Below, piece by piece: positions 7,029-54,841 of a DNA stretch of 64,000 bases. A model generated the notes under the pieces. That model saw only the letters and a list, made by a program, of their open reading frames with translations, did not search any database and had not been told where the DNA came from. The DNA comes from Candidatus Binatia bacterium. GTDB lineage: Bacteria; Desulfobacterota; Binatia; UBA12015. Made by a program: the position numbers and the translations under genes. Numbering within the stretch: the stretch's first letter is position 1; the number at the start of each line of letters is the position of its first letter. Location of the stretch: contig JAQWJE010000049.1 in assembly GCA_029248525.1 (NCBI GenBank), forward strand, positions 386,535 through 450,534. Reading direction: 5' to 3'.

Positions 7029-7044
7029 CAAAGGCTCCTTTGGC

Positions 7045-8289: not shown

Positions 8290-9381
8290 TCAGGGCGCCG
8301 GGCGGCCCCCCGGGCGTGCGCCGCCGGCGGGTCGAGTGGGTCGCCTCGGGGCCGGACAGCAACCGGGTCGGCAGAAGTCCGGCGCTGCCGGAAATTGGCC
8401 CATGCTCGCTGGAGAATGGCCTTCGATTCTTTCGAGAATCAGCTTGCGAATCATGCCGACGAAGCCGGCGTCGGTTCCTACCGTTCGCGCCCGCACCATT
8501 TGCAGACCAATTTCCTCGCAGGTGTCGGCCGCCTCGTGGTCCAGGTCGTAGAGAACCTCCATATGATCGGAGACAAAACCGATCGGCATGACGATCACAT
8601 CGCTTGTGCCGTCCTCTTTCAACGATCGGAGATGGTCGCAAATGTCCGGGTCGAGCCATGGGATCTGGGGTGGGCCGCTCCGGCTCTGATAGACCAGGTC
8701 CCAATGCGAGGAGTCGTATCCGTTCTGCGCCGCGACCAGGCCCGACAGCTCCGTGAGCTGTTGTTTGTAGTCCGACGAATCGCTCATGGAGACGGGAATA
8801 CTATGGGCGGTGAACGCAATCCTCAGGTCTGTCCGACGCTCCTCGGGGATCTTGGCGATTGCCTCTGCGAGGCCGCGTCCGTTCGCGTCGACGAAATCCG
8901 GGTGATTGTAGAACAGACGTAGTTTGTCGATGACCGGGGCCCCGGGGCCGACGACCTCTCGGGCTTTTTCAATATCCTCGCGATATTGTCGGCAACTGGA
9001 ATAGGAACCGGTCGAAGCGGTGACGAACGCGAGGGCGCGCTGTACGCCATCCGCTTTCATCTCGCCGATGGTATCCGCGAGCATCGGGTGCCAGTTTCGA
9101 TTGCCCCAATAAATCGGCAAGTCGAGGCCATTTGCGGCAAAGTCCTCTCGCATGGCGGCCAGCAGGTGCCGGCATTGTTCATTGATCGGGCTGACCCCGC
9201 CAAAGGCATTGTAATGCTCGGAGACTTCCAGCATTCGCTCCCGGGGCACATTGCGACCCCGCAGGACATTTTCGAGAAAGGGCATCACATCGTCCGGCCC
9301 CTCGGGGCCACCGAACGACACCAAAAGGATGGCATCATAGGCGCCGTCGGGCGCAGGGCTGCGTTCATCTGAGTCAGTCAT
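8290..9381 (-). CDS. hemH: Ferrochelatase
   Basis: ILLVSFGGPEGPDDVMPFL... and the rest of the sequence match ferrochelatase. ATG at 9379-9381 chosen (MTDSDE...). Long Pro/Arg-rich C-terminal tail. Start overlaps the upstream acyltransferase stop. Confidence 0.85.
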   Translation of the reverse strand: MTDSDERSPAPDGAYDAILLVSFGGPEGPDDVMPFLENVLRGRNVPRERMLEVSEHYNAFGGVSPINEQCRHLLAAMREDFAANGLDLPIYWGNRNWHPMLADTIGEMKADGVQRALAFVTASTGSYSSCRQYREDIEKAREVVGPGAPVIDKLRLFYNHPDFVDANGRGLAEAIAKIPEERRTDLRIAFTAHSIPVSMSDSSDYKQQLTELSGLVAAQNGYDSSHWDLVYQSRSGPPQIPWLDPDICDHLRSLKEDGTSDVIVMPIGFVSDHMEVLYDLDHEAADTCEEIGLQMVRARTVGTDAGFVGMIRKLILERIEGHSPASMGQFPAAPDFCRPGCCPAPRRPTRPAGGARPGGRPAP

Positions 9382-10417
9382 GGGGTCGTCCGCCGGCGTT
9401 TTGGGTGCAGAAATCGTCCACCTTTTTCCATTCCGTAAAGAACCATTCGATTCGATCTTCTTCCTTCTCGGGCAGGTCAGCAACGGGTACCGACCAGAAT
9501 TTCGCATGCACGACCTTGTCCATCAGCATGCCGTTGGAGAACTCGCGGAAGCTGCGCACGCCGTCGAATCCGGTATGCGCGCAGAACACGATGGTCCCCG
9601 AGGGGTTTTCGTCGATGCAGGCCAAAGCGCCGCCGATTCGGGGCGGCAGGACGGATTTGAATTGCTGCGCGCGTCGTAACTTCTCCGGATCGCTCTCGGC
9701 TGCGAGCTTCTCGTGAAGGCGGTCGCGCGTGCGTTCGGAGAATCGAGTCCCTTCCGGATACAGAAGAATGCCATCGCCGATTTCGAGATGGCGGCTGAGT
9801 TCTCGCACCCGGGCTATTTCGCGGGCGGGGTCGCTGGAGCCGCGACGGATGAAGGTATTGGGCAGACGTTGTCCGTAAAGGTCAAGACAGGGGTCCCAGA
9901 GAAGGTCGCGTTTCATCACGTAGCGGAGGAGAATATCATAGGGCCCGGAAACGAGCGCCACGGGGAGAACCGTGTCTGCGGTCGAGGAGTGTCGCAGAAA
10001 AACGAGCACAGGGCCGTCGCTTCGCGCTCGCGTAATCGCCTCGGTGCCCTCAAGGCGCACGCGGAGATGGAAGAGGGCACGGCCAGTTCCGAAGAGCGCT
10101 CCCGCCCATTGTTGTTGCACCAGAAAGCATGCTCGGATGAATTGGCCGGCCGACAGGAGGCGAGTCGCCCGGAGGATCCAGAGGAAGAAGCCGACCAGCA
10201 GCCCGAGGATTTCGCACCAGAGGTAGACTGTCAGAAATACGAGTGTTCGGGTAAATATGAAGCGATTGCGGCAGACCAGATCCACGCCAACCGCGATCAG
10301 CGCCAGCAGGGGCAGAACGGCCGACACAAAGGCCGTCATCAGGACATATGCCGGAAATGTCATCAGGCGACGTTTCCAGCGCTCCAGAAGGCTCTCCTGT
10401 TCGCGGGGCTGGTCCAT
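9374..10417 (-). CDS. Lysophospholipid acyltransferase (PlsC-family, 1-acyl-sn-glycerol-3-phosphate acyltransferase-like)
   Basis: HSSTAD (Hx4D) and YPEGTR motifs diagnostic of PlsC/LPLAT family. N-terminal TM helix. Start at Met 10417 chosen so as to leave a divergent intergenic region. Alternatives are 10363 or 10549. Confidence 0.65.
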   Translation of the reverse strand: MDQPREQESLLERWKRRLMTFPAYVLMTAFVSAVLPLLALIAVGVDLVCRNRFIFTRTLVFLTVYLWCEILGLLVGFFLWILRATRLLSAGQFIRACFLVQQQWAGALFGTGRALFHLRVRLEGTEAITRARSDGPVLVFLRHSSTADTVLPVALVSGPYDILLRYVMKRDLLWDPCLDLYGQRLPNTFIRRGSSDPAREIARVRELSRHLEIGDGILLYPEGTRFSERTRDRLHEKLAAESDPEKLRRAQQFKSVLPPRIGGALACIDENPSGTIVFCAHTGFDGVRSFREFSNGMLMDKVVHAKFWSVPVADLPEKEEDRIEWFFTEWKKVDDFCTQNAGGRPHD

Positions 10418-24363: not shown

Positions 24364-26592
24364 CTAGGGCTGATCGATGAAAATCGGTGAGGACCAGGCG
24401 CGGTGGGCAGCATCCGCCAGACAATTATCGTCCCAGGGCCGCCCGAAACAGGGGCTTACACTGGCGCAGGTCACGCCATCTTCCTTCTGGCAATGCAGGG
24501 GGTTCGCGCCCACGGTCGGGGTCGGTTCCTCGATTGCGCGCGCGTAGTAGAGGACATCGCGGCCTGAGCCGAGAAACTCCGGATCGCTGAAGGTGACCTT
24601 GCAGCCAGAGCTGTCGTTTGGGCAGGGCAGCTGTTTCCAGGGGTCTTCGATCAGGGGGGCGACGTTCTCACCGGCGAACCTCTGCGGGCGAATCCGCACA
24701 ATATCGATGTGCGTAATCACGTTGCGCTCGTCGGAGGGAAAGTAGCACTCTCCCTGACAAAGGCGCTCGAGTCGGTCTCCAGCCATGGATCCGAGGGCAT
24801 CCGGAGGGCATCCGGGCTTCTGGCGGAAGGAACCGACCGCGCGAACCTCGAATGCCGGGTTTTCGCTGAGTTTGGTCTCGGCGCCCATGGGCAGGGTTTT
24901 TCCCTCAGGTCCATTGGTGAGGTCGAACCAGAGGAGAATGCGGGGCCCGCTGGTTCCATAGACTTCGCGGCGCTGCATCGCGTCCCAGATCGCGCCCCGG
25001 TCCCGGCCGCTTGCGTGCACCGCCGTGAGTCCGCCGTTGAGGAAAAAGGAAGCCTGCCTCTCGGTCTCGAAATTCGCAAAAGGGACATCGATCGCATCCA
25101 TTTCGATCGCCACAGACTCGCCGATCGGGTCGCGGGTATCCCTCGATCCGAGTTGAGTATCGAGGAAATTACCGAAGCGAGCTTCGGTGAACTCCTGACG
25201 GGAAATGGGCTTGTAGCCGGTTCCCGGGCGGGCCGAGTGGTTGTCGCTGGCGGCAAGGAAACCGAAGCGGAAGCGGTCCCGACCGGCGTCGTTTTCGGGC
25301 CGGTTGAGCGCCATAATGTACTGCGCGGAGCTTTTCGGCCGATAGTTGAAGGCCGGGATGAAGCAATCCTTGCACTGACCGGCATCCTGCCAGTCGGCGA
25401 TCGTCGTGCTCGGTACCGTCGAATATCCCCCATTGAAGGAGGCGTCGATATAACGGCGGCGCGCGAGTGCCGCCTTGTCCGCGCAATCCTGAGCGGAGTT
25501 GCCCTCGGCAACGCAGCGCGCGGCAACAATTTCTCCGGCACGCCAGCAGGAAGGTTTGTAGAGGTCGCTTTGTGGCGGCGGGCAGGCCTTTTCATTGTTG
25601 GCACCCAGAAGAACTTCTTCCCAATCACGATATTCCTCGGAGTTGCCGTGTCCGGAGTAGACCTCGATCAGGCGTTGCCAGCGCGGGCTATGCTGGGTGT
25701 TGGTCAGCTGCTTGTCCCAGGAGGAGCCCAACGGTGTGTAGAAACCCCAACTGGTCCCGTGCGGAATGACCAGAGAATCGAGGTTCCAATCATCGAGCCG
25801 GTCGAAAAGTTCTGCGGGTGTGGGTGCCGTATCCCGACAATTATCCGGGAGTTCTCGCACCGGGATGCCTTTCGGGCATGCAGGTACGCTGGAGAGTTCG
25901 GTGAAAAAGCGGGCCAATTCGGGGCCGCCGGAATCAGCTTCGGCGATGGCCAGAAGGCCCATGACCAGCGCGGGAGGAGCAGCTTCGGTCAACGGCGGAA
26001 GTCCCGGAGGCGTTCCGGCCGTGATGGGGTGCGTCGGAATACGCGCGTCGTCAAGATCCCGAAAAATCACGTTTTTGTGGCCCCAATGGTTGGTGGGCTC
26101 GGTGCCGACCTGCGTCCACTCCCAGCCGAGATAGGAAACCAGATCGGGATTGGTATCGCCTCCGATCTGCTGGCATTGACGCATCGAGTCAATGGTTTCT
26201 TCCCAACGTCGAGGGGTCAGGCTGAGGGCGTGGTCGTTGATCGACCAGAAGTCCAAACCGCTGCAATGACGAGCGAAATCGCAGGCATCAGCGACCGGAT
26301 AGGCTCCTGATCCGCCCGCCATGGGCAAGCTCATCTGAAAGGCGTCGAAGGAGAAAGTGGTGTGGACATGCAGATCGCCAAACAAGATCTGCTTTGGCGC
26401 CTCGACGCCGACCGATTTTGCGGCTTTCTCGATCGCGGCGGCTCGCTCGGCGATGACCGCGGGTGCGACTACTTTCCCCTGCGGGACGCCGCCGATCATG
26501 CTCTCGGCAAAATAGCCCTTGCCGAGAATGAAAAGCGTCACCAGGGACAGGCCCACGAGGCCGGCCAATACGATCAGGATCTTGTTTCGCAT
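24364..26592 (-). CDS. DUF3604-domain secreted protein (paralog 1)
   Basis: 742 aa. Signal/TM N-terminus. FGDLHVHTTFSFDA motif (PHP-like metal-binding) characteristic of DUF3604. Paralogous to the 39742..41757 gene. Confidence 0.6.
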   Translation of the reverse strand: MRNKILIVLAGLVGLSLVTLFILGKGYFAESMIGGVPQGKVVAPAVIAERAAAIEKAAKSVGVEAPKQILFGDLHVHTTFSFDAFQMSLPMAGGSGAYPVADACDFARHCSGLDFWSINDHALSLTPRRWEETIDSMRQCQQIGGDTNPDLVSYLGWEWTQVGTEPTNHWGHKNVIFRDLDDARIPTHPITAGTPPGLPPLTEAAPPALVMGLLAIAEADSGGPELARFFTELSSVPACPKGIPVRELPDNCRDTAPTPAELFDRLDDWNLDSLVIPHGTSWGFYTPLGSSWDKQLTNTQHSPRWQRLIEVYSGHGNSEEYRDWEEVLLGANNEKACPPPQSDLYKPSCWRAGEIVAARCVAEGNSAQDCADKAALARRRYIDASFNGGYSTVPSTTIADWQDAGQCKDCFIPAFNYRPKSSAQYIMALNRPENDAGRDRFRFGFLAASDNHSARPGTGYKPISRQEFTEARFGNFLDTQLGSRDTRDPIGESVAIEMDAIDVPFANFETERQASFFLNGGLTAVHASGRDRGAIWDAMQRREVYGTSGPRILLWFDLTNGPEGKTLPMGAETKLSENPAFEVRAVGSFRQKPGCPPDALGSMAGDRLERLCQGECYFPSDERNVITHIDIVRIRPQRFAGENVAPLIEDPWKQLPCPNDSSGCKVTFSDPEFLGSGRDVLYYARAIEEPTPTVGANPLHCQKEDGVTCASVSPCFGRPWDDNCLADAAHRAWSSPIFIDQP

Positions 26593-31172: not shown

Positions 31173-32399
31173 ATGGAATTCAGGCGAGACCGGATCATTT
31201 TCCATGCAGATATGGATGCTTTCTATGCCTCGGTGGAACAGCGAGATCGCCCCTCGCTCCGCGGGCGTCCGGTTGCGGTTGGAGGCCTCCCCCCGCGCGG
31301 CGTGGTAACCGCGGCTTCCTACGAGGCTCGCGCGTTTGGGGTACGCTCGGCGATGCCGACATCCGAGGCCCTGCAGCGTTGCCCGCATCTCGAGGTGGTC
31401 CCGGGCAATATGAAGCTCTATGCGAGCGAGTCCCGCAAAATACGCAAGGTATTTGATGAGTTCTCGCCAGAGGTCGAACCGATCTCGCTCGATGAGGCGT
31501 TCCTCGATCTGACGGCATCGATGCGTGTTCTGGGTGGCCACAAGGAAGAGATCGCGCAGCGACTCAAGGATCGCGTGCGTGCCGAGACGGGCCTCTGCAT
31601 TTCCGTCGGGATTGGGCCGGTCAAAATGGTTGCAAAGATCGCCAGTGATTTATCCAAGCCCGATGGCCTGTTGGTTGTGGAGCCGAGCGACTGCCGCGAC
31701 TTCCTGGCGCCTTTGCCGATTCGTCGGCTCTGGGGTGTCGGGCCGGTACAGGAGGAGAAACTGCTGCGAAAGGGCATCCGCACCATCGGTGATCTGGCCG
31801 GGTTGGTTGATGTGGCTCCCGGAAGTGAACTGGCGCGGCTCTGCACGCTGGCACGCGGCGAAGACGATCGACCGGTCGAGAACACGCGCGAAGCTCGATC
31901 GATCGGCGAAGAACAGACCTTTGCGACCGATGTAAGGGACCGCGTCCGATTACGCGAGATGATTGGTCAGCACGCCGAAGCGGTCGCACGTCGGCTGCGG
32001 CGGGAAAACCTGGAGGCTCGGGTGGTCCGGTTGAAGATCAAATCCAACGAGAAGCTGGATCGACCGGGAAAGTATCGGATCTACACGCGCCAATTGACCC
32101 TGCCGGAACCAACCCAGGATGGGCGTCGGCTCCGCATCGCTGGCCATGAGTTGTTGTCCGACGACTCCTTGCCCCCGCAGGTTCGGTTGTTGGGACTGAC
32201 GGCCGCCGGCTTGCAAGAGGTCGGTGTGTCGGCGACAGGGCAGATCGATATGTTTGCCGGGGCGCCGCGCGAGGACCAGAGTCTGAACGAGGCGCTGGAC
32301 AAGATTCAGGATCGGTTTGGACTCGAGGTGATCCAGCGCGGGGGAGGTGCAAGGGTCAGCAAGGCATCCCCGAGTCTTGGGATCAAAAAGGGCGAGTAG
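31173..32399 (+). CDS. dinB: DNA polymerase IV
   Basis: IIFHADMDAFYASVEQRD N-terminal Y-family polymerase signature. 408 aa. Confidence 0.85.
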   Translation: MEFRRDRIIFHADMDAFYASVEQRDRPSLRGRPVAVGGLPPRGVVTAASYEARAFGVRSAMPTSEALQRCPHLEVVPGNMKLYASESRKIRKVFDEFSPEVEPISLDEAFLDLTASMRVLGGHKEEIAQRLKDRVRAETGLCISVGIGPVKMVAKIASDLSKPDGLLVVEPSDCRDFLAPLPIRRLWGVGPVQEEKLLRKGIRTIGDLAGLVDVAPGSELARLCTLARGEDDRPVENTREARSIGEEQTFATDVRDRVRLREMIGQHAEAVARRLRRENLEARVVRLKIKSNEKLDRPGKYRIYTRQLTLPEPTQDGRRLRIAGHELLSDDSLPPQVRLLGLTAAGLQEVGVSATGQIDMFAGAPREDQSLNEALDKIQDRFGLEVIQRGGGARVSKASPSLGIKKGE

Positions 32400-32432
32400 G
32401 CCCCTTATGGGGCCTGCTCGCTGCCTCTTTTT
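32398..32432 (+). terminator. Putative terminator after dinB
   Basis: AGGCCCC-ttat-GGGGCCT hairpin starting 1 nt after dinB stop. TTTTT 12 nt downstream. Between convergent genes. Confidence 0.4.
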
Positions 32433-32436: not shown

Positions 32437-34242
32437 TTATTCTTCTCCGATATAGTAGGCGCCCAGGATCAGGAACATCTCGTCTTCGGTGCTGACGCCT
32501 CCGTTGACAGGGCACGCATCACATAGCCCGTCGCCCTCTCCGGGGGTGGAGTCGCAAGTCGCATCATCGCCCAAGCCGTTGCAGGGCTTCCCAACCTGGC
32601 CCGACCAACAATTGGTTGGCGTACATCGACCGAAAATCGAATTCTGCGGGGTTTCCGAAGCTCGCTTCACGACGCTCGGGTCCGGCTCACCGTTTTCGCC
32701 GTAGCCATTATTATAAGTCGCGCAATAACGGAAGGTGCGATCCTCAACGTCCGGTGAGTCCATCTCCAATGGTGGATCAAAGTATTTGTTCAGAGGGTCG
32801 TTGTAGCTGAAGTTCTGATAGACCAGTTCACCATCAGGGTCGTAGACGAGGAACTCCTTGCCGCGCTGATGGTAGTGCGAGAGAAGGTTGTAGACGCGTG
32901 ACCCTTGGGGTGCGACCCAGCTTTGGCAGAAGGTTTTTTCCTCATATGCGGGGATCGAGATGCTCAGGATTTGATCGGCATCGAAGATCTGGAGGGAGCG
33001 TATCTGCGCATCTTCGGCAAAAGTCCAGTTCAGTCGCCCATTCATTTCGAGATCGCTGCCGGTGAGATTGAACGCATGGGAGTTCCAGTAGAAAATTCCC
33101 TCACAGGGCATTTCGTCGAAGACGCCCTCCGGCATGCTTCTTTTCTCGGAAGTTTGCTGCACGGTCAAAAGATTTGTCGAACTAAGGGGGCTGGGGCCAC
33201 CAGGGGGGCCAAAGCCGGTGCACCCGGGAGTATCCACGATGCGGCTGATACAGAAACCATCATCACAAGCGCCTTGTTCCTTGGGGTCGCAGGATTCGCC
33301 GGACTTCGAGCCCAGACTGCAGGTCCAATCGCCGAATTCAGGAGCATCGACGTCTGCGTATCCTGTGTACTCCATCAAGATGGCATGGTGGCTTTGTGCA
33401 TCCTGTCGGAGATTGTATTCCTCGATCCGGAATCTCTGGCCGTATTGCCTTGGTTGTCCTTGGTTCGGGGAGGTGTCTCTCTCGGTCAGATATTCTTCAG
33501 GGATCTGTCCGCAGAAATCGTAGTATGTCGCGAAGCAGACCTCACGCTCGCTTGCGGCCGGCAGCAGGTAGGAAGGCATGATCAACTGAACGCCTTCACT
33601 CGGGTCCGGGGCGTCCAGGGGCCGAATCGATTGCGGAAGTTCTTCGGGGAGGCAAGCCCCGAGTAGCTCGGCTGTACCCGCAACGGTGCCGTCTTCCTGT
33701 GCACCATTCTTGATCCATAGGCGCAGAAGTTCGATATCGTCCGTGCTCAAAGTACCATTGCCCGTGGGCATCGCGCCGCCGGCAATCTCGACTCCTTCGG
33801 GATCCAGTTTGGCGAGAACTTTCAGATAGAGATAGCTGTCCATCGGTGTTCCGGGTTCGATCAAGTCGAGGTCGAAAGTTTGCGACGGGATCTCATGAAT
33901 ATTCGCCCACGCGACTTCCGGGCTCAGGTCGAGTCCCGCGGCTGCATTGGATCCGTGACAGGGCCCGTCGGCACACTGCTGCTGCACGAAGATTTGCTCG
34001 TAGATGCCTTCCCAAGTGCTTTCGTAGGTGTTGATCTCGTCACACTCTTCAGGACTGTCGGTAGGCTCAGGCTCAGGCGTCGGCTCGGGTGTGGATTCTC
34101 CGGTTGGTTCCGGGGTGGGCATCGGGAGGAGCGGCATCCCGTTGTCCGAGGACCCCCCACCGCAACCGCTGATGATCAGCAGCAAGGCGATGAGAGCGCC
34201 TGCAGTAACTCTTGCGATGGGAGTTTTCTGTGGATGAGCCAT
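32437..34242 (-). CDS. Lipoprotein with C-terminal copper type II ascorbate-dependent monooxygenase-like (PHM/DBH-like) domain
   Basis: Lipobox LLLIISGC. Segments SHHAILMEYTG, NSHAFN, SHYHQRGK and EDEMFLILGAYY align with PHM CuH (HHMLLFGC, H172) and CuM (HTHHLGK, DEMCNLYIMYY) ligand motifs. N-terminal IFVQQQCADGPCHG is cytochrome-c-like (CX4CH). Start at Met 34242 uncertain (alternative 34299). Confidence 0.5.
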   Translation of the reverse strand: MAHPQKTPIARVTAGALIALLLIISGCGGGSSDNGMPLLPMPTPEPTGESTPEPTPEPEPTDSPEECDEINTYESTWEGIYEQIFVQQQCADGPCHGSNAAAGLDLSPEVAWANIHEIPSQTFDLDLIEPGTPMDSYLYLKVLAKLDPEGVEIAGGAMPTGNGTLSTDDIELLRLWIKNGAQEDGTVAGTAELLGACLPEELPQSIRPLDAPDPSEGVQLIMPSYLLPAASEREVCFATYYDFCGQIPEEYLTERDTSPNQGQPRQYGQRFRIEEYNLRQDAQSHHAILMEYTGYADVDAPEFGDWTCSLGSKSGESCDPKEQGACDDGFCISRIVDTPGCTGFGPPGGPSPLSSTNLLTVQQTSEKRSMPEGVFDEMPCEGIFYWNSHAFNLTGSDLEMNGRLNWTFAEDAQIRSLQIFDADQILSISIPAYEEKTFCQSWVAPQGSRVYNLLSHYHQRGKEFLVYDPDGELVYQNFSYNDPLNKYFDPPLEMDSPDVEDRTFRYCATYNNGYGENGEPDPSVVKRASETPQNSIFGRCTPTNCWSGQVGKPCNGLGDDATCDSTPGEGDGLCDACPVNGGVSTEDEMFLILGAYYIGEE

Positions 34243-34332
34243 CCAGAGATCATGTACAATGCCGACTACGGTGGCAAGCCCTAACTCAAGTGACGTCAAA
34301 TCAAGGTTTTTCTCCGATTATGGGTCACGAAT

Positions 34333-35193
34333 TCAGGATTCGCTCACCTGAATTTTATCGTCGACGTGAAGCCTGAGGCCTTTTTCGGCATGGCCGTTGC
34401 GGATCGCGATTTCGAGGTAGCCATCACTGCCGATCAAGGCGAGCGGTTCACCTTCAGCGACCTCCCCGTAAGTGCGGCACAGGGCAACGACGGTTTCGCT
34501 CCGAGGAAGTTGCGCCGCGCAGGCATCGGGAAGGTCCTCTCTGCGAAGATTCGTGATGGCGTTTCCGAAATGATCGAAGAGCAGGATGGTGCCCTCGATG
34601 CGGTTGCCGCGGCGCAAGGGATGCGGTCGCGGCAAGGGTAGGGGCTCGTATCGTGGACCTGTTTGATGCGGGGAAAGCGAACCGCTGGCAAGGGCGGCGG
34701 CGATCGGGGCAAAGAGATCGCGGCCGTGAAACGTTGGCGCGAGATCTACCGGCAAAAAGGGTTCCGTGTCGGGATTTCTCTCGATCTGATGGCAATGGAA
34801 TGGTCCCAGCCTATCCAGAGTTGGGCCGAGAACGCCATTATCAGGAGCCACGAAGCATTGGCCACCAGCCACAGCCACCAGGGCGCGTCGATCGGTTCCG
34901 ACGCCCGGGTCCACGACCACCATATGGACGGTCCCCTTCGGCCAATAGGGCGCTGCTGCCGACATTGTGGTGGCGCCGTGAATGATGTTCTGCGGCGGTA
35001 TCCCGTGCGCGATATTCTCGATCCGAAGTCGAGCATCGTGATTCAGAATCATGCCCTTCATCGCGCCCACATAGCCATCGGTCGTGCCGAAGTCCGTGGT
35101 CATGGTGACCAGGCCGCAGGGATGAAAGAGAGATGGCGGGTCGGTGGAGGCGGTCATGGCTTCAGCTTCAGCCGTGCGGCGGCTCTCTGTCAA
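34333..35193 (-). CDS. SAM hydroxide adenosyltransferase / SAM-dependent halogenase family (DUF62)
   Basis: TTDFGTTDGYVGAMKG N-terminal signature shared with fluorinase/chlorinase/SAM hydrolase family. True start may be an internal Met (35157 or 35103). Confidence 0.65.
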   Translation of the reverse strand: MTESRRTAEAEAMTASTDPPSLFHPCGLVTMTTDFGTTDGYVGAMKGMILNHDARLRIENIAHGIPPQNIIHGATTMSAAAPYWPKGTVHMVVVDPGVGTDRRALVAVAGGQCFVAPDNGVLGPTLDRLGPFHCHQIERNPDTEPFLPVDLAPTFHGRDLFAPIAAALASGSLSPHQTGPRYEPLPLPRPHPLRRGNRIEGTILLFDHFGNAITNLRREDLPDACAAQLPRSETVVALCRTYGEVAEGEPLALIGSDGYLEIAIRNGHAEKGLRLHVDDKIQVSES

Positions 35194-35220: not shown

Positions 35221-37680
35221 TCAGAAGCGGTAGGAGAGTTCCGCGCCCCAGGTCGCGGGTTGGCCCCAGAAGCGAATGGCAGTTCCCCAGGAGGACACTG
35301 TCGCCGGCATCGACCATTGCAGATATTCCGTCCCGGTGACGTTCTGTCCCCAGAAGGCAAACTGGGCTCGATCGTCGAGGAAATCGTAGCTGAGCCGGAG
35401 GTGCAGCAGGTGGTAGGCCGGTTGATTCGAGCTCCAGACCTCAGGCCCTTCGAAATGGAAGGCACTCTGGTAGCTCCAATCGAAGCGCGGGGTAATCCAG
35501 CCGTCCAGCCAGGCTGGTCCGGGAAGATCGATCGGTAGCGCATATTGCATCGATAGATGGGTTTGCAGGTGAGGGCTGAAAGGGAAGGTCTCGCCCGCGC
35601 GACTGATCGGCTGGCCATCCAATTGACTGGGTGCGTCGGGGAAGTCGGCATAGACAGCATCGAGCAGTCCCATCGAGCCGCTCACGCGGAATCCGTCGAT
35701 GGGTAGCGCCATGAACTCCCATTCGATTCCGCGGGTGGTTGCTCGCGCCGCATTCATCGTCACCTGCACGATATTCGGAATAATCTCACCCTCTTCGCTG
35801 AGATCCTGCAATTGCGTGACCTGGATATCATCATAGAGGCCGACGAAGCCCGCGATATTCATGGTCAGCCGCTGATCCCAGAGAATCGATTTGAAACCGA
35901 TTTCGAACGAGTCGAGAGTTTCGGGGGCGAAGTCCGTCAGATTGATATCGGCCGGATTCAGGACCCCATTGAAGCCGCCACCCTTGAAGCCGCGCGCGTA
36001 GGTAAAATACGAGAGGAGAGAGTCCAAGGGCGTATCCTCGAGCAAGGCTTCGGGCATCAATACGGAGATGGTTCCCATCGGGGTCCAGGACGGGAACAGG
36101 GCGGACTTCGGGGGCTCGCTATCCGCGGGTTGGTCGGGAAAGAAGGGGTCGATATTGGACTGTTGGATGCCCTTGCGATCCTCGCTATAGCGCAGGCCAC
36201 CAGTGAAGCTGAGCCATTCACGGGCGCGGAAAGTGGCTTGCGAGAAGAGTGCCCAGGTGAAGTTGTCGATCGCCGTGATGTTTTCTTTCCCGAAGCGAAT
36301 GGCGGTCTCGTAGCCGGAGAGGACGACGCGGTTGTCCGAGCCGTTCTCCCAAAGACTGAAATAGCCGACGATGAAATCAAGACGATCGTCGATCGCTGTG
36401 CCGCTGAGTTGGAATTCCTGCTGGATCTGTCGCTGATGTCCCGGCTTGCCATCGAAGGGGCTGCCGCCGCCTGCATCCGATATTTGCACGATCGTCAGAT
36501 CGGTTCCGTCGAAGTCCTGGCGAAAGCGAAAGTCCTGCTCGCGCCAGGAAGTGATCGATTTTGCCCGGAGATCGATGCCCGCGATTTCGCCGATATCCCA
36601 ATCAATGGTTCCCCAAGTCCCGTAGGAGATGGTTTCCTGCAGTTGCGAGGTATTTGACCAGTTGCGAAATGGCTCACTCCGATCACAGGCCTCTTGTACG
36701 TCGTATCCGGCCTGAGTGAAAAGACCCGCCAGGCCGGTATCCTGAATAAAGACGCATTGGCCTCCGGCGGCATAGCTATGATCCTGCGACCAGGAGCCGC
36801 TCACGTCGACCGTCAATGAATCGGTGGGCAACCAGCGAAGCGAGCCGAGAAAGGCGAGCGTGTTTCGATTGGACCAGTCCTGCTTCCGAGGCACGTTGCG
36901 GACCCAGCCACCATCCTGCACGGAGGCAAACGAAAATCGTGTGAAGAGTTTGTCCTCAAAGGGCCCGAAATCGATCGGCAGGTTGAGCATCGCCCGAGCG
37001 AGCATCGTCTTGCGGCTCCCGGGCCGCACGAGAGCAAAGCCCTCCACGGAATCCTTTGGCTTGGTTGTGGTGATATTGACGGCTCCCCCAACGGTATTTT
37101 TGCCAAAGAGGGTTCCCTGAGGTCCGCGCAAGATTTCGATTTGTTCAATATCGATCACATCGAGAAGCGCACCGACCGACCGCGGCAGAAAGACTCCATC
37201 AATGAAGACGCCGACGCCGGGGTCGAAGGCCATATCGGTATTGGAAGTCCCCACGCCACGGATGACAAAGTTGGCTTCCGCGCCGCTATCGGCCCCGTGG
37301 ATCTGGAGGTTGGGGACAAGGTCCTGAATCTCGTCAAGCCGCGTGATCCCTGCCTCGCGGAGCGTGCTCTCGCTGAGTGCGGTCACGGCGACAGGAGTTT
37401 CTTCCAGACGTTCACTCCGCTTGCGTGCGGACACCACAATTTCTTCGATGGTCTTTCGCCTCGAAGCGGAGCTCTCTTCCGAGGCTTGCTCGGGTTCGCC
37501 GGAGGAGTTCTCAACCAGACTTTCGGGGGAGCTCTCTGTCGCTTCCGCACCCGGATTCTGTACGGAGATCGTTTCAACCGCTGGCGTCACGTCTTCAGCC
37601 TGAGCGAAGGCATAGCCTGTCGCGCAAGCAACCCATGAAAACAGAACGAGAAAAAAACCAGCCTTACCTCGAACGGCCAT
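35221..37680 (-). CDS. TonB-dependent receptor
   Basis: Signal peptide (MAVRGKAGFFLVLFSWVACATGYAFA), plug-domain motif ETPVAVTALSE, beta-barrel, C-terminal ...LSYRF. Start set at Met 37680. Confidence 0.8.
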   Translation of the reverse strand: MAVRGKAGFFLVLFSWVACATGYAFAQAEDVTPAVETISVQNPGAEATESSPESLVENSSGEPEQASEESSASRRKTIEEIVVSARKRSERLEETPVAVTALSESTLREAGITRLDEIQDLVPNLQIHGADSGAEANFVIRGVGTSNTDMAFDPGVGVFIDGVFLPRSVGALLDVIDIEQIEILRGPQGTLFGKNTVGGAVNITTTKPKDSVEGFALVRPGSRKTMLARAMLNLPIDFGPFEDKLFTRFSFASVQDGGWVRNVPRKQDWSNRNTLAFLGSLRWLPTDSLTVDVSGSWSQDHSYAAGGQCVFIQDTGLAGLFTQAGYDVQEACDRSEPFRNWSNTSQLQETISYGTWGTIDWDIGEIAGIDLRAKSITSWREQDFRFRQDFDGTDLTIVQISDAGGGSPFDGKPGHQRQIQQEFQLSGTAIDDRLDFIVGYFSLWENGSDNRVVLSGYETAIRFGKENITAIDNFTWALFSQATFRAREWLSFTGGLRYSEDRKGIQQSNIDPFFPDQPADSEPPKSALFPSWTPMGTISVLMPEALLEDTPLDSLLSYFTYARGFKGGGFNGVLNPADINLTDFAPETLDSFEIGFKSILWDQRLTMNIAGFVGLYDDIQVTQLQDLSEEGEIIPNIVQVTMNAARATTRGIEWEFMALPIDGFRVSGSMGLLDAVYADFPDAPSQLDGQPISRAGETFPFSPHLQTHLSMQYALPIDLPGPAWLDGWITPRFDWSYQSAFHFEGPEVWSSNQPAYHLLHLRLSYDFLDDRAQFAFWGQNVTGTEYLQWSMPATVSSWGTAIRFWGQPATWGAELSYRF

Positions 37681-37765
37681 AGCGGATGTTCCTCCATCAC
37701 TGGTATGACGCTTGAGGCGGTGTCGGGTCAAGCGGACGGAAGTGCATGACGGGGCGGCTGATCGC

Positions 37766-39745
37766 CTATTCGTCCAGCAAGGATTCCAATGCGGTCTGGC
37801 GATCCAGCCAGAGTTCTTCGCATTCTTCCAATTCTCGACTGATTTCCGCGTGACGCTGCTGGCTTTCGCGGACATTGTCGCTGCCGGCTTCGTACGTCGA
37901 AGGGTCGGCGAGTCGTGCTTCGAGTTCCTTCCGCTCCCCTTCAAGACGCGCCATATCCTTGTCGAGTCGTGCGATTTCGGCGCGCACGACCTTCGTTTTG
38001 GCAGCGTTCTGGTTGCGAGTTTCCGCGGCGAGCCTTTTTTCCTCCTTGCGGGCGCGCCCGCTGCGCTCGAGAGGAGGCGCCGTTATGTCCTTGGGCGCGT
38101 TCGCCGTCTTCTTTGCAGATGCCGGAAGGTTTTCCGGGGTCAGGCTTTCCTGCTTGCGTCGCCAGAGATAGTGGTCCCAATCACCCGGGTAGTCGCGGAC
38201 CTCGCCATGCTCGATCCGGACCACCCGCTGCGCGATTTTCTGGATAAAGTGGACATCGTGGCTCACGAAGCCGATCGCTCCCTCGAAACGTTCCAGGGCG
38301 CTTACGAGCGCATCGACCGACGGCATATCGAGATGAATTGTCGGTTCGTCCATCAGGAGGACGCTGGGCGGATTGAGAAGAACCATCGCCATGGCCAGAC
38401 GACTCTTTTCACCGCCGCTTAAAACTCGGGCTTGTTTGTCGACATCGGTTCCGCGGAAAAGGAAAGCGCCGAGCAGGCTGCGGACTTCCGTCTCCCCGGC
38501 ATCACGGGAGGAGTCCATCGCGTTCTGCAGCACCGTATTGTCGAGCGCCAACATTTCCTGGCGATGTTGGCCGTAGTAGCCCACTGTGGCTCGCAAGCCG
38601 ACTTCCCGGTCGCCATGGTCGGGCTTTAAAACTCCGCCCAGAAGTTTCAGCAGGGTGGACTTCCCGGCGCCGTTGGGGCCGACGAGTACGGTCTTTTCGC
38701 CGCGTTCAAGTCGGAAGTCGAGATCCTTGTAGACATGCGTTTCCTCGTAGGATTTCGAGACATTCTGGAGCGCGAGGGCGAGACGCCCGGTCCGCGGCGG
38801 TTGCGGAAATTGGAAGGAGACTTTGCGCGCATCCTTCTCGACGACGATTCGAGTTTCCTTTTCCAGCGCCTTGATCCGGCTCTGCACCTGTCGTGCCTTG
38901 GTTGCCTTGGCGCGGAAGCGTTCGATGAATTTCTCTGTTTCCCGGATCCGGCGCGCTTGTGCGTCGGCCGAGGCCTCGAGCTGGGCGCGGCGCTCGTCGC
39001 GTTGTCGGAGGTAGCTCCGGAACCCCCCTGCGTATCGGGTCACGATGCCGCGATCGATCTCGACAATCGATTGGGTCAAAGCCTCGAGAAACGCGCGGTC
39101 ATGGGAGATGACGACCAATGTGATATCGGACCCCGCCAGATGGTCCTGCAGCCAGAGGACGGATTCCAGGTCGAGGTGGTTGGTGGGTTCGTCCAGAAGC
39201 AGCACGTCCGGCGGTGTTGTCAGAAGTCGGCCCAGCTCGGCACGCATCGCCCAGCCTCCTGAAAGGGTGCGCAGGGCGCGCTCCTCATCTCCCGGAGGGA
39301 ATCCGAGCCCCGCGAGAACTTTCCGGGCGCGTGCTTCCCGATCGTGACCGCCGAGTTGGGCGAATCGTTCATGGGCCTCGGCAAGTTCGGCGGATAGTCG
39401 AGCCTGCTCTTCGGCAGTGGCGTTCTCGATGCGGTCGGGGAGCGTTTCGAGGGCTGCCTCCAGCCGAGCGAATTCCGGGTCGGGGCGGAGCGCGGCTGAA
39501 AGTGCCGTTTCCTCCGACTGGGAATCGAGCTCCTGTCGCAGCATGCCGATCCGTATGCCCGAGTTGTGACCGACCCGGCCGGCATCAGGCTCCTCGTCGC
39601 CTACGATGAGTTTGAGGAGGGTGGACTTGCCGGCCCCGTTGGCGCCTACGATGCCGGTCCGTTCGCCGCGCTCGAAACGCAGCTGGAGGCCTTCGAAAAG
39701 CGTTCTTCCGCCAACTGCCTTATGAATGTCTTCCAGCCAAATCAC
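37766..39745 (-). CDS. ABC-F family ATPase (tandem ABC ATPase domains, no TMD)
   Basis: Two Walker A (GANGAGKST, GPNGAGKST) and two LSGG signatures. Linker and C-terminal coiled-coil typical of ABC-F (EttA/Uup-like). Confidence 0.8.
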   Translation of the reverse strand: MIWLEDIHKAVGGRTLFEGLQLRFERGERTGIVGANGAGKSTLLKLIVGDEEPDAGRVGHNSGIRIGMLRQELDSQSEETALSAALRPDPEFARLEAALETLPDRIENATAEEQARLSAELAEAHERFAQLGGHDREARARKVLAGLGFPPGDEERALRTLSGGWAMRAELGRLLTTPPDVLLLDEPTNHLDLESVLWLQDHLAGSDITLVVISHDRAFLEALTQSIVEIDRGIVTRYAGGFRSYLRQRDERRAQLEASADAQARRIRETEKFIERFRAKATKARQVQSRIKALEKETRIVVEKDARKVSFQFPQPPRTGRLALALQNVSKSYEETHVYKDLDFRLERGEKTVLVGPNGAGKSTLLKLLGGVLKPDHGDREVGLRATVGYYGQHRQEMLALDNTVLQNAMDSSRDAGETEVRSLLGAFLFRGTDVDKQARVLSGGEKSRLAMAMVLLNPPSVLLMDEPTIHLDMPSVDALVSALERFEGAIGFVSHDVHFIQKIAQRVVRIEHGEVRDYPGDWDHYLWRRKQESLTPENLPASAKKTANAPKDITAPPLERSGRARKEEKRLAAETRNQNAAKTKVVRAEIARLDKDMARLEGERKELEARLADPSTYEAGSDNVRESQQRHAEISRELEECEELWLDRQTALESLLDE

Positions 39746-41757
39746 GTACTGGGAGGTACGTACCAGATGGGAGACGTCCAGGCGCGTTCCTGAATGACAC
39801 GCGCGATTTCAGGGTCCTGACAGCCGCCCGGTCGATTTTCGGGCTCGAATTCGAGGCATTGCCAGGCGTTCCAGCGGCAAGAGGGGTTCTCCAGAATCCG
39901 AGCGTAATATACGGCTCGCTGATGCGGATCGAAATCGGGATCGCGCCATCCCCCGCAGAGCTCTCGGTGCCCGGGGCCGGATACGGCGCAGGTATCGAGG
40001 TCGACGGTCGCGCCATTTTCGGCCCCGCCGGCGACCTCATGCACCGATTGGTGGAAGGTATCGTCGGGCCCGTACCACCCCTTCACGATTTGAATATGCT
40101 GCAGCAAGCCTCCGGGATTTTTCGCTGTGCCCGGATCCGCGAGTGCCTGCACGACGAACGTCGGGGCCACACCGATGTCGGGCGCGTCCGGGAGGGTGCC
40201 TCCCATGGGAACACCGAGTTCGTAGCCCAGTTCGGCCAGATTGCTCCGTTCACAGAGGTCCGGCGGCAAGTTCCAGCCGGCGAAGAGGCGGGGGCGGATG
40301 CGGGGGCCGCTGGTGGCAAAGGTTTCGCGTCGTCGCAGGGCATCAAAGACGGCTTCTCGGGAATTCTCTTCCGCCCAGACGCCCGCAAGCCCGCCGGGGT
40401 TTCTGGCGAGATTGCTGCCGATCCCCGCGGCGCCGTTTCCGCTTGTGAGGCGTTTGCGCGCTGTATCGTCCATGATGCCGGACGTCCCGGGATAGCTCTT
40501 TTCGACGACGACACCGGGTGCAGCATTATGAGTATCCGTGCTGCCGATAAAACCCACTTCAAAGGGGTTGATACCGAGGCGCTCCTCTTCGCGCATCCCC
40601 TCGATGATGGCATAGCGTGCGTAGTCCAGCCTCTGGACGCATCCCTTGCGGGCCATGGCCCCGAGAGAGCGCTCGGTGCCGATACAATTCTCGGGGCCGA
40701 GTTCGCCAAGACCGCGCATCTTTTCGAAATTGCAAAGCTCATCGACGCCGCCAAGCACTTTCCATAAGTCGTTGCGGCACTCGGACTCGCCCTTGATCTG
40801 CATCATCTCGACCAGCGGCTCGAGTCGTGCCCGGAGCGCGACTCTTTTTTTCTGTTCGGCAAGCGGCAGGTCCTGATAGTCCAGCGTGAAGATATGCCCC
40901 CCGGAGAGATTGGGATTATGGGGAATTGTCAGGGCATCGCACGGTGTGCCCGTGTCGAGGCAGCGGCTGACCAGCTTCTCCCATAAATCCACCTCGGTGG
41001 CAGCGTCGATCCAGGAGATCGGGAGCTCGGGAACGACATTGTTTCGGAAGAAGACATTGCGGTGAATTTTCGTGCGGCCAGGAGAGCGACTGTATTCCCA
41101 CGCAACCAGAGTCGTGAATTTGCACGAGGAAGACCGGTCATAGAATTCCTCGGCCGCACGCTGGGTTTCTTGCCAGCGAGATTTTGCCGCAGCGCGACAG
41201 GGGCGAGCCTCGTCCCCGCAAATGGTTGCGCCGCGACCTTCCAATGTCATGATCCCGAGCATCCGAGAGGGCCAACCCTTGAGGCCCAGCATCCACGCTA
41301 TCCAGGAGTCTTCTTCGCCCCGGAAAATACGACAGTCGCCGGTGTCGTAGACTGCCGAACCGGGTGTGGTGCAGAGACTGACTTCGCCCAGCCACTCGGC
41401 ATGGTCGGTGACGGCGGCAAAATCCAGTGGTCGATCAATCTTCAGCCCACGAGTGCCCTGGCCGTCCGGACCAAGCGGCGGAACGAAAATCTCCTCGCCC
41501 CGTGCATAACGATAGGCGTCGCCGGGTTGGTTGATGACATCTCGGCCTCGGGCATCCATGGAGAGCCCGGTATGGACATGAAGATCGCCAAAAAGAGCTT
41601 GCCTGGTTTCGCGTCGATCCAGGCAGGGCTCGCGCGGCAGGACTTCGATTTGTGGAGCGGCCCCGCCAGGTGGGGACCATTCGGGATGTTCTGGTTCAAA
41701 GTTCCCGAAATCGCATCCGGAGAGGAGGGTCAGAAAGAGAGCGCATCGGAGTCGCAT
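39742..41757 (-). CDS. DUF3604-domain lipoprotein (paralog 2)
   Basis: 671 aa. Lipobox LTLLSGC. ALFGDLHVHTGLSMDA motif as in paralog 1. Stop overlaps ABC-F start by 4 nt. Confidence 0.6.
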   Translation of the reverse strand: MRLRCALFLTLLSGCDFGNFEPEHPEWSPPGGAAPQIEVLPREPCLDRRETRQALFGDLHVHTGLSMDARGRDVINQPGDAYRYARGEEIFVPPLGPDGQGTRGLKIDRPLDFAAVTDHAEWLGEVSLCTTPGSAVYDTGDCRIFRGEEDSWIAWMLGLKGWPSRMLGIMTLEGRGATICGDEARPCRAAAKSRWQETQRAAEEFYDRSSSCKFTTLVAWEYSRSPGRTKIHRNVFFRNNVVPELPISWIDAATEVDLWEKLVSRCLDTGTPCDALTIPHNPNLSGGHIFTLDYQDLPLAEQKKRVALRARLEPLVEMMQIKGESECRNDLWKVLGGVDELCNFEKMRGLGELGPENCIGTERSLGAMARKGCVQRLDYARYAIIEGMREEERLGINPFEVGFIGSTDTHNAAPGVVVEKSYPGTSGIMDDTARKRLTSGNGAAGIGSNLARNPGGLAGVWAEENSREAVFDALRRRETFATSGPRIRPRLFAGWNLPPDLCERSNLAELGYELGVPMGGTLPDAPDIGVAPTFVVQALADPGTAKNPGGLLQHIQIVKGWYGPDDTFHQSVHEVAGGAENGATVDLDTCAVSGPGHRELCGGWRDPDFDPHQRAVYYARILENPSCRWNAWQCLEFEPENRPGGCQDPEIARVIQERAWTSPIWYVPPST

Positions 41758-51847: not shown

Positions 51848-54841
51848 CTACTTCAGGCACTGCAGCTTGAGACGGTCTCCGTCCCGCTTCTTGGAACCCG
51901 CTACGGAGACTTTGGATGCGATCACCAGTTTTGATCCGCGTGGGACATCCACCAGCATCGCCTTCGTGCAGCTTTCTTCGCTGGTGTTCAGCAGCGTGCC
52001 GTCGTTGAGTCCCTCGAGCAAGCTGGCTCTCGCGGCCAGATCGATCGCCTTTCGGGAACGTGCGGCCGGACGTTTGAGATCGATCTCGCTGACCGCTTGT
52101 GCGGGGCAGCTGATGCGCTCATCGGCACCACCGAAGCAGCCCCAGAGCCGGAACTGGCAACCCGGCGCGGCAAGATCAAAGTCGCAGGTTGCATCGCCCT
52201 GAGCGCAGATAGCGATAGGTCTGGGGAGCCCATTCCGCGCGATGGGGACCCCACCGGGTCCGGTTTCCACGACCCATTCGGCAGCGCAGTCAGTTTTGCT
52301 CGAGCCACCGCCGGGGATTCTCAGGTCGGTGGGTGCGATCTCGCAAGTGAGGTTACAGCGACTGCTCTCGGTGCCGTTCAGGTCGCCGTCATCGCATTGC
52401 TCCCCGCACTCGAGGGTACCGTTGCCGCAAACCTCGACGTTGCAGGTATTGGAACAACCATCGCAGGAGTCGAGATTACCATCATCGCAACGTTCGCCAA
52501 TCTCGAACGCGCCGTTGCCGCATACAGCATCATTTCGCAGACAGGCGAGATTGATCTTGTTGCCGACCACCGAGCGGCCGCCGGCATCCCGGGCACCTAC
52601 ACTCAGCGGTTTGGCCGCCAGGGAGCGACCGCCAACCGGGACTACGAACTCGAACGAATTCGTGCAGAGGCCGTCCTCGGGCAGATTGGGTCCATTCTGC
52701 AAAGTGGTCGTTCCGGATTTCACGGTCCCACCCAGACCGGTGAGTGCTGACGCGACCACAGCGGCATTGCTCAGGTCGACGGGATCCCGGCCGAAGCCGA
52801 CTCGCGGCTTACGCAACTTGGCAAAGACAATGGGCTCTGCGTCGCAGAGCGGTTTCTCGGGATTATTGACACCGAGGCAGGCACTGACCTCCCAGGCACA
52901 GGAATTGTTGATCACGCCATCCTGATCGCAAATGGGATCCCCGTCGGTACACGACTGTTCGTTATCGGGGTTGCCGTTGCGATCCAGTGCCGGGTCCGCT
53001 GTGACGAGGTCCCACTGGACCAGGCAGCCGTTGCGGGCCTTGGTCCCGGGGATGCGAATCCCGTCTACGCCGGTTGGCTGACACGTGTCTTCGCAGCCAT
53101 CATCATTGTCGAGATTCCCATCGTCGCAGGATTCGTTGCATTCAAGAATACCATCGCCGCAGAGATCGTCGATTCGACTACAGTCGGAACTGCAACCGTC
53201 ACAGTTCCGGATGTTGCCATCGTCGCAAACCTCGCCCTCATCGGTCGTGCCGTCGCCACACGCACTCGCGCATTCCGGGAGCACGACCGGCGGCTGCGCC
53301 CCATCGAGAGAGGGGTCGGAGACGGGTGTAATTATCGGATCCGAGCCGTTGTCGGCGCTGATATTGCCGGTGATGGTCGGTTCCACGGTGTCGTAGATCA
53401 AAACATTTGCATACGAGGCCAGCATGGTGCCGGCAATCGTGATGGCTCCCCGGGCCCGGATCTCGTTGACGCCAAGTCCTTGGTAGACAAAGCCGGCCCG
53501 GGTATCGATCTCGGCGCCTGCCGCCACATTGACGGAACAGCCGGAGAGAAGGACCATACCGCCGAGGCCATCGCGCCCAGTGCCTTCGGCATCGAGCTCT
53601 CCAAGGATCTCTGTGCCTCCACCCGAGAAAATTTCCACAAATCCGCCACCTCCCGGGGAGGTCAGATCGGCATCCCGGATGATGCTGTTTCCGGTCGCTG
53701 CGATGGAGATGCCACCGCCACTTCCGTAGCTGCCGCCAGCGCGCAGGGAGAGTGAACTGCCGGGATGCATGGTGACACTGCCGCTGGTAGTGATATCGAC
53801 TTCACCGCCAAAGCACTGGGTGCCGCCCTGGAATCGTAGCTCGGAGCGTAGATCGATATCTCCGCCCGATTCAATCGTGAGTGGTGAGCCGTCCCCGCAA
53901 TTTTCGTCGGCACCAGCCCCGCCCTTGCCGTTCATGATCCCGGAAATATCGACAAAGCCTGCGGGAGCGGAAAAGTCGATGGAACCGGCTTCGCCGTCAG
54001 GACCGCCGCCGGAGGCCTCGATCTCTCCGTTGAAAATGATGTTCCCGCCCGTGCTGCTGAAGAAGATCGGTCCGCCGCCGTATGCGCCGCCTTGTGTGGT
54101 GATCTCGCTACTCACAACGAGGTCGCCGCCCGCATATGCGGAGAAGTCTCCGCCTGCGGAGTCCGCGCCAGAGGCATTGAGAATCATCTCGCCGGATAGT
54201 GTGATCGGCCCGGAGGCATCGATTGAAATCACCCCTCCCTGCGCATCGGCGCCGGTGGCGGAGGAGCGCAGCTCGCCGGCTGCGGTCACGGCGCTGCCGG
54301 GAGTTTCCAGAGCCTTGATGTAGATCGAGCCCGCGTAATTGTCACGGACGTCAATGATACTCCCGACCTCAAGGGAGATGTCTCCCGCGAGGGCCTCCAG
54401 GTCGACACGAGATTGCGCCCCATTGCCGTCAATTTCAGCACCGCTGCGCATCGTAATCGTTCCGGCTTTGAAGGTGATGCGCCGGAGGACCGGATCAGGC
54501 AGAGACTCGATCGTGACTTTGGCCGAAGCCGCGAAGACCAGGTCGGTCTCTGCGCCAAATTCCAGAACGGAGCCGGCATCGATGGTGACGGCGCTGCTGA
54601 TTGTACAGGGGTTCCCCGTGCACAGTTCGCTGGCTTCCGTGGCCAAGCCGGTTCGTGGCAGCAGGACAAATAGAGAAAGAAGGCAAATTTGAGCAAATGA
54701 TTTCAAGGGAACCCCTCCCAGGGATAAATTTTGGGGATTTTGTGTGCGATCCAACCGGATCTGGTTTGCCTGATTCAAGTTTCTGTCCGGGGCCACAAGC
54801 CAAGCCAACCCTGAAATTATCATGGGTTCCAAAAAAAGCAC
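51848..54841 (-). CDS. Large secreted protein: glycine-rich beta-helix-like N-terminal region plus Myxococcus-type cysteine-rich repeats
   Basis: 997 aa. N-terminal half is G/S/D-rich with periodic repeats (beta-helix-like). C-terminal half carries repeated CDDGN...CDGCS...C modules matching Myxococcus cysteine-rich repeat. N-terminal start and signal peptide position uncertain. Confidence 0.6.
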   Translation of the reverse strand: MLFLEPMIISGLAWLVAPDRNLNQANQIRLDRTQNPQNLSLGGVPLKSFAQICLLSLFVLLPRTGLATEASELCTGNPCTISSAVTIDAGSVLEFGAETDLVFAASAKVTIESLPDPVLRRITFKAGTITMRSGAEIDGNGAQSRVDLEALAGDISLEVGSIIDVRDNYAGSIYIKALETPGSAVTAAGELRSSATGADAQGGVISIDASGPITLSGEMILNASGADSAGGDFSAYAGGDLVVSSEITTQGGAYGGGPIFFSSTGGNIIFNGEIEASGGGPDGEAGSIDFSAPAGFVDISGIMNGKGGAGADENCGDGSPLTIESGGDIDLRSELRFQGGTQCFGGEVDITTSGSVTMHPGSSLSLRAGGSYGSGGGISIAATGNSIIRDADLTSPGGGGFVEIFSGGGTEILGELDAEGTGRDGLGGMVLLSGCSVNVAAGAEIDTRAGFVYQGLGVNEIRARGAITIAGTMLASYANVLIYDTVEPTITGNISADNGSDPIITPVSDPSLDGAQPPVVLPECASACGDGTTDEGEVCDDGNIRNCDGCSSDCSRIDDLCGDGILECNESCDDGNLDNDDGCEDTCQPTGVDGIRIPGTKARNGCLVQWDLVTADPALDRNGNPDNEQSCTDGDPICDQDGVINNSCAWEVSACLGVNNPEKPLCDAEPIVFAKLRKPRVGFGRDPVDLSNAAVVASALTGLGGTVKSGTTTLQNGPNLPEDGLCTNSFEFVVPVGGRSLAAKPLSVGARDAGGRSVVGNKINLACLRNDAVCGNGAFEIGERCDDGNLDSCDGCSNTCNVEVCGNGTLECGEQCDDGDLNGTESSRCNLTCEIAPTDLRIPGGGSSKTDCAAEWVVETGPGGVPIARNGLPRPIAICAQGDATCDFDLAAPGCQFRLWGCFGGADERISCPAQAVSEIDLKRPAARSRKAIDLAARASLLEGLNDGTLLNTSEESCTKAMLVDVPRGSKLVIASKVSVAGSKKRDGDRLKLQCLK

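Follow-up and report, generated by a model that had tools for sequence, protein, structure and literature searches.

One gene of the window, as we call the whole stretch of 64,000 nucleotides that was analysed, encodes a protein of the DUF62 family and lies on the minus strand between a gene for a TonB-dependent receptor and a gene for a PHM-like lipoprotein. The question raised by this locus is whether the three genes serve one pathway or are simply neighbours. The reading that we favour, to which we give a probability of roughly 0.7, is that the DUF62 gene (34333–35157, minus strand, 274 aa) encodes a cytoplasmic SAM hydrolase, that it has a promoter of its own, and that its place between these two neighbours, receptor gene and lipoprotein gene, reflects gene order inherited within a clade, with no pathway shared by the three products. 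The case is built on Pfam and PDB matches, alignment of the catalytic triad and dN/dS, and on the promoter-like elements and the gene order of relatives.

Hydrolase and halogenase features of the DUF62 protein

The family assignment made in the preliminary description is borne out. The TTDFG...DGYVG signature on which it drew is present in the protein (MTTDFGTTDGYVGAMKG), both Pfam domains of the family are matched far above their gathering cut-offs (SAM_HAT_N, 3e-48, 163.7 bits, cut-off 26.3; SAM_HAT_C, 1.9e-22, 79.8 bits, cut-off 25.5), and the best solved-structure match, aligned from end to end, is the SAM hydroxide adenosyltransferase PH0463 (PDB 1wu8/2wr8; E 8.5e-41), which differs in being the enzyme of an archaeal thermophile, Pyrococcus horikoshii. 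The same PDB search returns a Thermus homologue at 1.5e-38 and MJ1651 at 1.4e-29, the deposit of the latter being titled '(R)-S-adenosyl-L-methionine hydrolase'. Two (R)-SAM hydrolase models are also the top NCBIfam matches, NF058624 with 193.5 bits (under its cut-off of 350) and NF053629 with 161.1 bits (under its cut-off of 470); the names THET and Pyrc0463 suggest that the Thermus and Pyrococcus enzymes served as their basis. Because the score is 161 bits against the 470 demanded by the PH0463 equivalog, the protein is by that model a member of the family and not an orthologue of PH0463. Among characterised proteins, the stereoselective (R,S)-SAM hydrolase StDUF62 of Salinispora tropica (A4X4S2) has the same two-domain architecture, shares 36% identity over 269 residues (E 1e-37; the StDUF62 sequence was machine-read and may contain small errors) and carries VDPGVGTxRR and TFHGRD motifs identical to those of the window protein, although it comes from another phylum.

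The superfamily to which these hydrolases belong also contains the SalL chlorinase and the fluorinases FlA and FlA1, which have the same fold, act on SAM and likewise displace methionine at C5' in an SN2 reaction. Together with the name 'SAM-dependent chlorinase/fluorinase' carried by some database relatives, this kinship is what might favour a halogenase making a 5'-halo-5'-deoxyadenosine for a natural product. The residues at the active site argue otherwise. According to a review (PMC10491745), DUF62 hydrolases invariably keep a water-activating His-Arg-Asp triad that both halogenases lack. In the window protein the triad is kept as D83, R90 and H144 (codons 34909–34911, 34888–34890 and 34726–34728; numbering from the ATG at 35157), within the motifs VDPGVGTDRR and TFHGRD; these residues align with D68, R75 and H127 of PH0463 as well as with StDUF62, and they are retained throughout the close clade, so that the loss of the catalytic Asp or His that would have spoken against the hydrolase assignment is not seen. 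In a four-way alignment with StDUF62 and PH0463, the triad columns read Y/T/Y in FlA1, whose fluorinase-specific loop of about 21 extra residues is missing from the window protein (the FlA1 and StDUF62 sequences used here were machine-read and carry small OCR errors). The fluorinase model TIGR04507 reaches 45 bits in two fragments against a cut-off of 400, and in the PDB search SalL (3.5e-21) and FlA (6e-16) fall far below the hydrolases. Nor do the surroundings suggest halometabolism: Pfam scans of the larger ORFs of the window find a mixture of metabolic and housekeeping genes, among them ferrochelatase, galactokinase, a luciferase-like monooxygenase, an acyl-CoA ligase, aconitase, MoeA and a sigma factor, and among these scanned ORFs no natural-product, halometabolite or other biosynthetic gene of that kind. 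Since the triad is kept and the fluorinase loop is missing, we read the protein as a SAM hydrolase and not as a chlorinase or fluorinase; the halogenase alternative retains next to no probability, and the label of the database relatives does not hold for this protein.

We note in passing that Glu (TFEGRD) or Asp (TFDGRD) takes the place of the triad His in other DUF62 proteins from Binatia and Myxococcota (P0012 and P0021, in L091 and L089, and P0042, in L092). In two Binatia genomes the gene concerned overlaps that of a class I SAM methyltransferase, and in a Myxococcota MAG it comes after a gene for a NupC-type nucleoside transporter; the products may form a variant catalytic subgroup.

By homology with PH0463 and StDUF62, Asp83, Arg90 and His144 would activate water, which would attack C5' of SAM in an SN2 reaction and release L-methionine and adenosine. 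StDUF62 and two archaeal enzymes are described as hydrolysing selectively the (R)-sulfonium epimer of SAM. This epimer, inactive and formed spontaneously, is the preferred substrate of the characterised DUF62 members, and it is because of this preference that we think of the window protein as probably serving the clearance and salvage of damaged cofactor. Both hydrolase activity and stereo-preference are carried over here from homologous enzymes, and the authors of PMC12120602 doubt that clearance of (R,S)-SAM is the sole physiological role.

The gene is under purifying selection (dN/dS 0.18–0.25), with a dN/dS two to four times that of the neighbouring genes, and between lineages its product shares only 60–64% identity, compared with 76–89% for the receptor, ABC-F and DinB proteins of the same lineages. 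Constraint on it is thus weaker than on the genes around it. An identical protein occurs in two MAG assemblies (GCA_965659095.1 and GCA_029251665.1). Its relatives are found in metagenomes of marine and deep-sea origin and in MAGs whose labels read Candidatus Binatia, 'Deltaproteobacteria' or Myxococcota. A search of the 64,000-nt window for second copies found none, either of the DUF62 gene or of the lipoprotein gene.

Start codon, promoter-like elements and transcription

The DUF62 ORF was first called on the minus strand as 34333–35193, with 286 aa counted from a TTG codon. Alignment of the spacer between the receptor and DUF62 genes leads to a different start. In six lineages GTTGACAGA, AAGCT and the ATG at 35157 are invariant, giving a consensus TTGACA-18-nAnGCT-6-ATG, to be compared with the 3–12% of fourfold-degenerate sites that are invariant across the same lineages and serve as our neutral yardstick. 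In the window this promoter-like element occupies 35164–35193 on the minus strand (TTGACA 35193–35188, 18 nt, GAAGCT 35169–35164, 6 nt, ATG 35157). The TTG at 35193 is nothing other than the first three bases of the invariant TTGACA box, a 1-nt deletion in one lineage (L093) throws it out of frame with DUF62, and gene callers choose the ATG in relatives, giving proteins of 273–275 aa. The 286-aa start was therefore rejected and moved to the ATG at 35157, which makes 34333–35157, with 274 aa, the most likely extent of the coding sequence.

The -10-like hexamer GAAGCT is a poor match to the consensus. The element is also found upstream of the DUF62 gene in a more distant relative (L007, 7965–8003) that has no receptor gene upstream, and the DUF62 gene probably has a promoter of its own. 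A sigma-70-like promoter at this site would place the start of transcription at the A of the ATG itself.

A similar element, first flagged by a consensus scan, precedes the lipoprotein gene at 34249–34277 on the minus strand (TTGCCA, 17 nt, CATGAT, 6 nt, ATG 34242), and here TTGCCACC and TTGTACATGATC are invariant in five lineages, again against 3–12% at neutral sites. The two elements are built alike, each with a -35 box, 17–18 nt, a -10-like hexamer and exactly 6 nt to the ATG, and a pattern scan of the whole window for such elements finds only four followed by an ORF of at least 100 aa, the DUF62 element included. Because 6 nt separate the -10-like hexamer from the ATG, the DUF62 and lipoprotein genes would be expected to give leaderless transcripts; promoter function and leaderless transcription are both proposed from the conserved pattern. 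The receptor gene is arranged differently: the region upstream of it (37691–37731, minus strand) contains TTGACC (37731–37726), TCATAC (37708–37703) and GGAGG (37695–37691), the last being the Shine-Dalgarno sequence of a classical leader ahead of the ATG at 37680. CTTGACC is found in all five aligned loci of the spacer between the ABC-F and receptor genes, and the -10-like and GGAGG block is common to four close loci and diverged in L010.

How, then, are the three genes transcribed? The preliminary description called them co-operonic, and as far as a common strand and short spacers go this stands: the spacers are 63 nt between receptor and DUF62 genes and 90 nt between DUF62 and lipoprotein genes, and a scan for intrinsic terminators finds none between the three genes until a G+C-rich hairpin with a 14-bp stem at 32391–32422, located between the convergent lipoprotein and DinB genes and flanked by T-runs on both strands. 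On the minus strand the stem is followed by CTTTTTG, and the hairpin is likely the terminator of the minus-strand transcripts. The further statement that the DUF62 gene sits 'in-frame' between its neighbours is right to the extent that all three genes end at a coordinate of 1 mod 3; it has no meaning, however, because stop codons and the 63-nt and 90-nt spacers part the genes. With one strand and no terminator before 32391–32422, polycistronic read-through is quite possible. Read-through from the receptor gene into the DUF62 gene is, however, possible without being required, and the internal -35/-10-like elements before the ATGs of the DUF62 and lipoprotein genes, conserved in five to six lineages, suggest something other than a unit served by a single promoter. 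Co-transcription by read-through would in any case not imply a shared pathway. Rfam gives no match in the whole window at the gathering threshold, nor in 32.3–38.0 kb at E values up to 1, which leaves the junctions without a SAM riboswitch or any other known RNA; a tRNA search found none.

It is this arrangement, one strand with short spacers and terminator-free junctions, that lends some appeal to a pathway in which the receptor would import an adenosyl, sulfonium or nucleoside compound, the lipoprotein would hydroxylate it in the periplasm and the DUF62 protein would cleave the adenosyl-sulfonium bond. The promoter-like element conserved before each of the genes does not sit well with such a pathway, and we consider it quite unlikely. 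One could accommodate the elements by assuming a nested operon with internal leaderless promoters, in which the DUF62 protein has been recruited to an imported compound of the adenosyl-sulfonium or nucleoside type that the receptor takes up and the lipoprotein, as a cytochrome-fused copper oxygenase, oxidises; to this version we attach a shade less credence again.

The receptor, the lipoprotein and their surroundings

The identities of the two neighbours hold up well. The receptor gene (35221–37680, minus strand) encodes 819 aa with a signal peptide and with Plug and TonB_dep_Rec_b-barrel domains; it is called as 819 aa in GCA_965659095.1 as well, and the protein is 83% identical to its orthologue in L003. 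Upstream of it on the same strand come a gene for an ABC-F family ATPase (37766–39745; two ABC_tran domains, ABC_tran_Xtn and ABC_tran_CTD, with matches to NCBIfam ABC-F models) and a gene for a DUF3604 protein (39742–41757; PF12228, 1.6e-158), the 3' end of which shares 4 nt with the start of the ABC-F gene (39742–39745). The ABC-F protein is of the translation-factor type, soluble and without a membrane domain, and hence not a transporter. Domain scans between 32.4 and 41.8 kb find no inner-membrane permease. An import pathway that ends at a cytoplasmic hydrolase is difficult to reconcile with these observations: the DUF62 protein has no signal peptide, the receptor and the lipoprotein belong to the envelope, the block lacks an inner-membrane transporter, and the one ABC protein in it is soluble.

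Several other features of the region may be recorded here. The DUF3604/ABC-F pair is kept in L009 and L010; DUF3604 genes are found near lipoprotein paralogues in 6 of 80 loci of the lipoprotein family, besides the orthologous L009 and L010; and a second DUF3604 paralogue of 742 aa lies beyond the aconitase gene in the window (24364–26592). The window also encodes a protein of 997 aa with cysteine-rich DUF4215 repeats (51848–54841, minus strand) and a second TonB-dependent receptor (61648–63732, minus strand). The DUF4215 repeat is also fused to some PHM-like family members (P0205, P0207, P0211).

The lipoprotein gene (32437–34242, minus strand) encodes 601 aa from the conserved ATG and a lipobox LIISGC; the ORF extends to 34299 with 620 aa, so that the length is 601–620 aa depending on the start. 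The predicted architecture is an N-terminal helical CX4CH domain followed by a double beta-sandwich like that of PHM and DBH. An AlphaFold (AF2) model has a pLDDT of 83.5 and a pTM of 0.78, and in a Foldseek search with this model the best 29 PDB matches are all DBH or PHM (E 2e-10 to 4e-06). H304, H305, H408, H475, H477 and M608 (620-aa numbering) are invariant, in the order HH...H...HxH...M, which we take to be the order of the CuH and then the CuM ligands of PHM; in the N-terminal domain C109-x4-C114-H115 and M177-P178 are invariant. At the level of sequence the resemblance fades. A Pfam scan of the lipoprotein gives no match above threshold, weak matches to Cu2_monoox_C and to PSCyt1 appear in 6 and 5, respectively, of 32 family members, and a profile of the family finds no PDB sequence at E values up to 10. 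Because the profile finds no PDB sequence, the resemblance to PHM is one of fold and motif, and at that level the 'PHM-like' label is justified. In further contrast to PHM and DBH, the lipoprotein is bacterial, lipid-anchored and fused to a PSCyt1-like CX4CH domain, and it has many paralogues per genome.

The family comprises about 97 clusters, all unannotated, and is greatly expanded in Binatia-type MAGs, with more than 415 confirmed stretches and often 5–10 copies per MAG; tandem copies are present in 10 of 80 loci (L009–L088). A literature search for bacterial PHM-like lipoproteins returned nothing relevant. Members of this family could be periplasmic copper monooxygenases with a built-in electron-donor domain. 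Genes of this Binatia-type family were also met on contigs deposited as a 'Klebsiella pneumoniae' MAG (L036, L075 and L082; CAMBZJ01...), and a contig of a 'Burkholderiaceae' MAG gives match statistics identical to those of a Binatia MAG contig from the same study (L027/L028); these records are probably mislabelled or mis-binned.

Gene order in relatives and the origin of the neighbourhood

The comparison of neighbourhoods that the preliminary description called for does not support the coupled pathway that it suggested. The order receptor, DUF62, lipoprotein is found only in the window and in four other loci (L006, L009, L093 and L094), a clade of marine Binatia-like MAGs whose DUF62 proteins are at least 58% identical. 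The five lineages stand at saturated synonymous divergence (dS above 1.5), and retention of the trio over such a distance counts for something in favour of a pathway shared by the receptor, the DUF62 protein and the lipoprotein. The unrelated genes that flank the trio, however, are just as syntenic: DUF3604 and ABC-F on one side and, beyond the lipoprotein gene, convergent on the plus strand, DinB and an aminotransferase, which together with a cytochrome c' gene follow in the window.

Among the next relatives the genes part one by one. In L003, with a DUF62 protein 64% identical to that of the window, ABC-F, receptor and DUF62 genes are followed directly by DinB, the lipoprotein gene being lost. 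In L007 (50% identical) there is no receptor gene, and one strand carries in succession DUF62, glcDEF, the orthologous lipoprotein gene (59% identical) and an MFS gene. In L010 the order is DUF3604, ABC-F, receptor, inverted glcFED (5984–9776), lipoprotein, MFS and DinB, without DUF62, and in L011 and L012 glcDEF is accompanied by the lipoprotein gene, again without DUF62. Each of the three genes is thus missing or displaced independently of the other two. On a wider scale, a DUF62 gene lies within 10 kb in 1 of 80 lipoprotein-family loci, that one being the orthologous L009, and among the matches listed from 80 diverse DUF62 loci (653 kb), which are distant relatives of 33–44% identity and serve as a background sample, none of the 80 has a relative of the receptor or of the lipoprotein. 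DUF62 genes elsewhere keep different company: the class I methyltransferase and NupC-type transporter genes mentioned above, or glcDEF in L007.

The locus of L007 raises one more possibility, that the pair now seen in the window is the remnant of an older operon of DUF62, glcDEF, lipoprotein and MFS genes, in which DUF62 was tied to the genes downstream of it, and that the window lineage, which has no glcDEF at the site between DUF62 and lipoprotein, lost both glcDEF and the MFS gene. In L007 (8001–12767) the DUF62 stop overlaps the glcD start, so that the two are translationally coupled, the remaining genes come next, all on that strand, and upstream lies the promoter-like box of the DUF62 gene once more; moreover, glcDEF adjoins the lipoprotein gene in L010, L011 and L012. 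Those same three loci, on the other hand, combine glcDEF and the lipoprotein gene without DUF62, with glcDEF inverted in L010, a conserved promoter-like element precedes the lipoprotein gene itself, and there is no biochemical logic between SAM hydrolysis and glycolate oxidation. We consider such an ancestry unlikely.

We therefore return to a cytoplasmic SAM hydrolase with its own promoter, whose place between the receptor and the lipoprotein would be synteny passed down in a single clade of marine, Binatia-like MAGs. That the trio is confined to one small group of marine bacteria makes a shared pathway unlikely, and a real functional link of any kind among the three genes seems to us unlikely to quite unlikely; we infer the absence of coupling from this pattern together with the promoter-like elements and the separate compartments of the proteins.

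The DUF62 gene is thus one more member, from an uncultured phylum, of a family with known chemistry, whose physiological task of removing the inactive (R)-epimer of SAM is already being investigated. The three-gene 'pathway' would be an accident of gene order peculiar to this lineage. Two by-products of the analysis perhaps reach further. The set of promoter-like elements, which would imply leaderless transcripts in this lineage, deserves a follow-up of its own, and the PHM-like lipoprotein family, uncharacterised, heavily expanded and fused to a cytochrome-c-like domain, is in our view more interesting than the DUF62 gene that led us to it.
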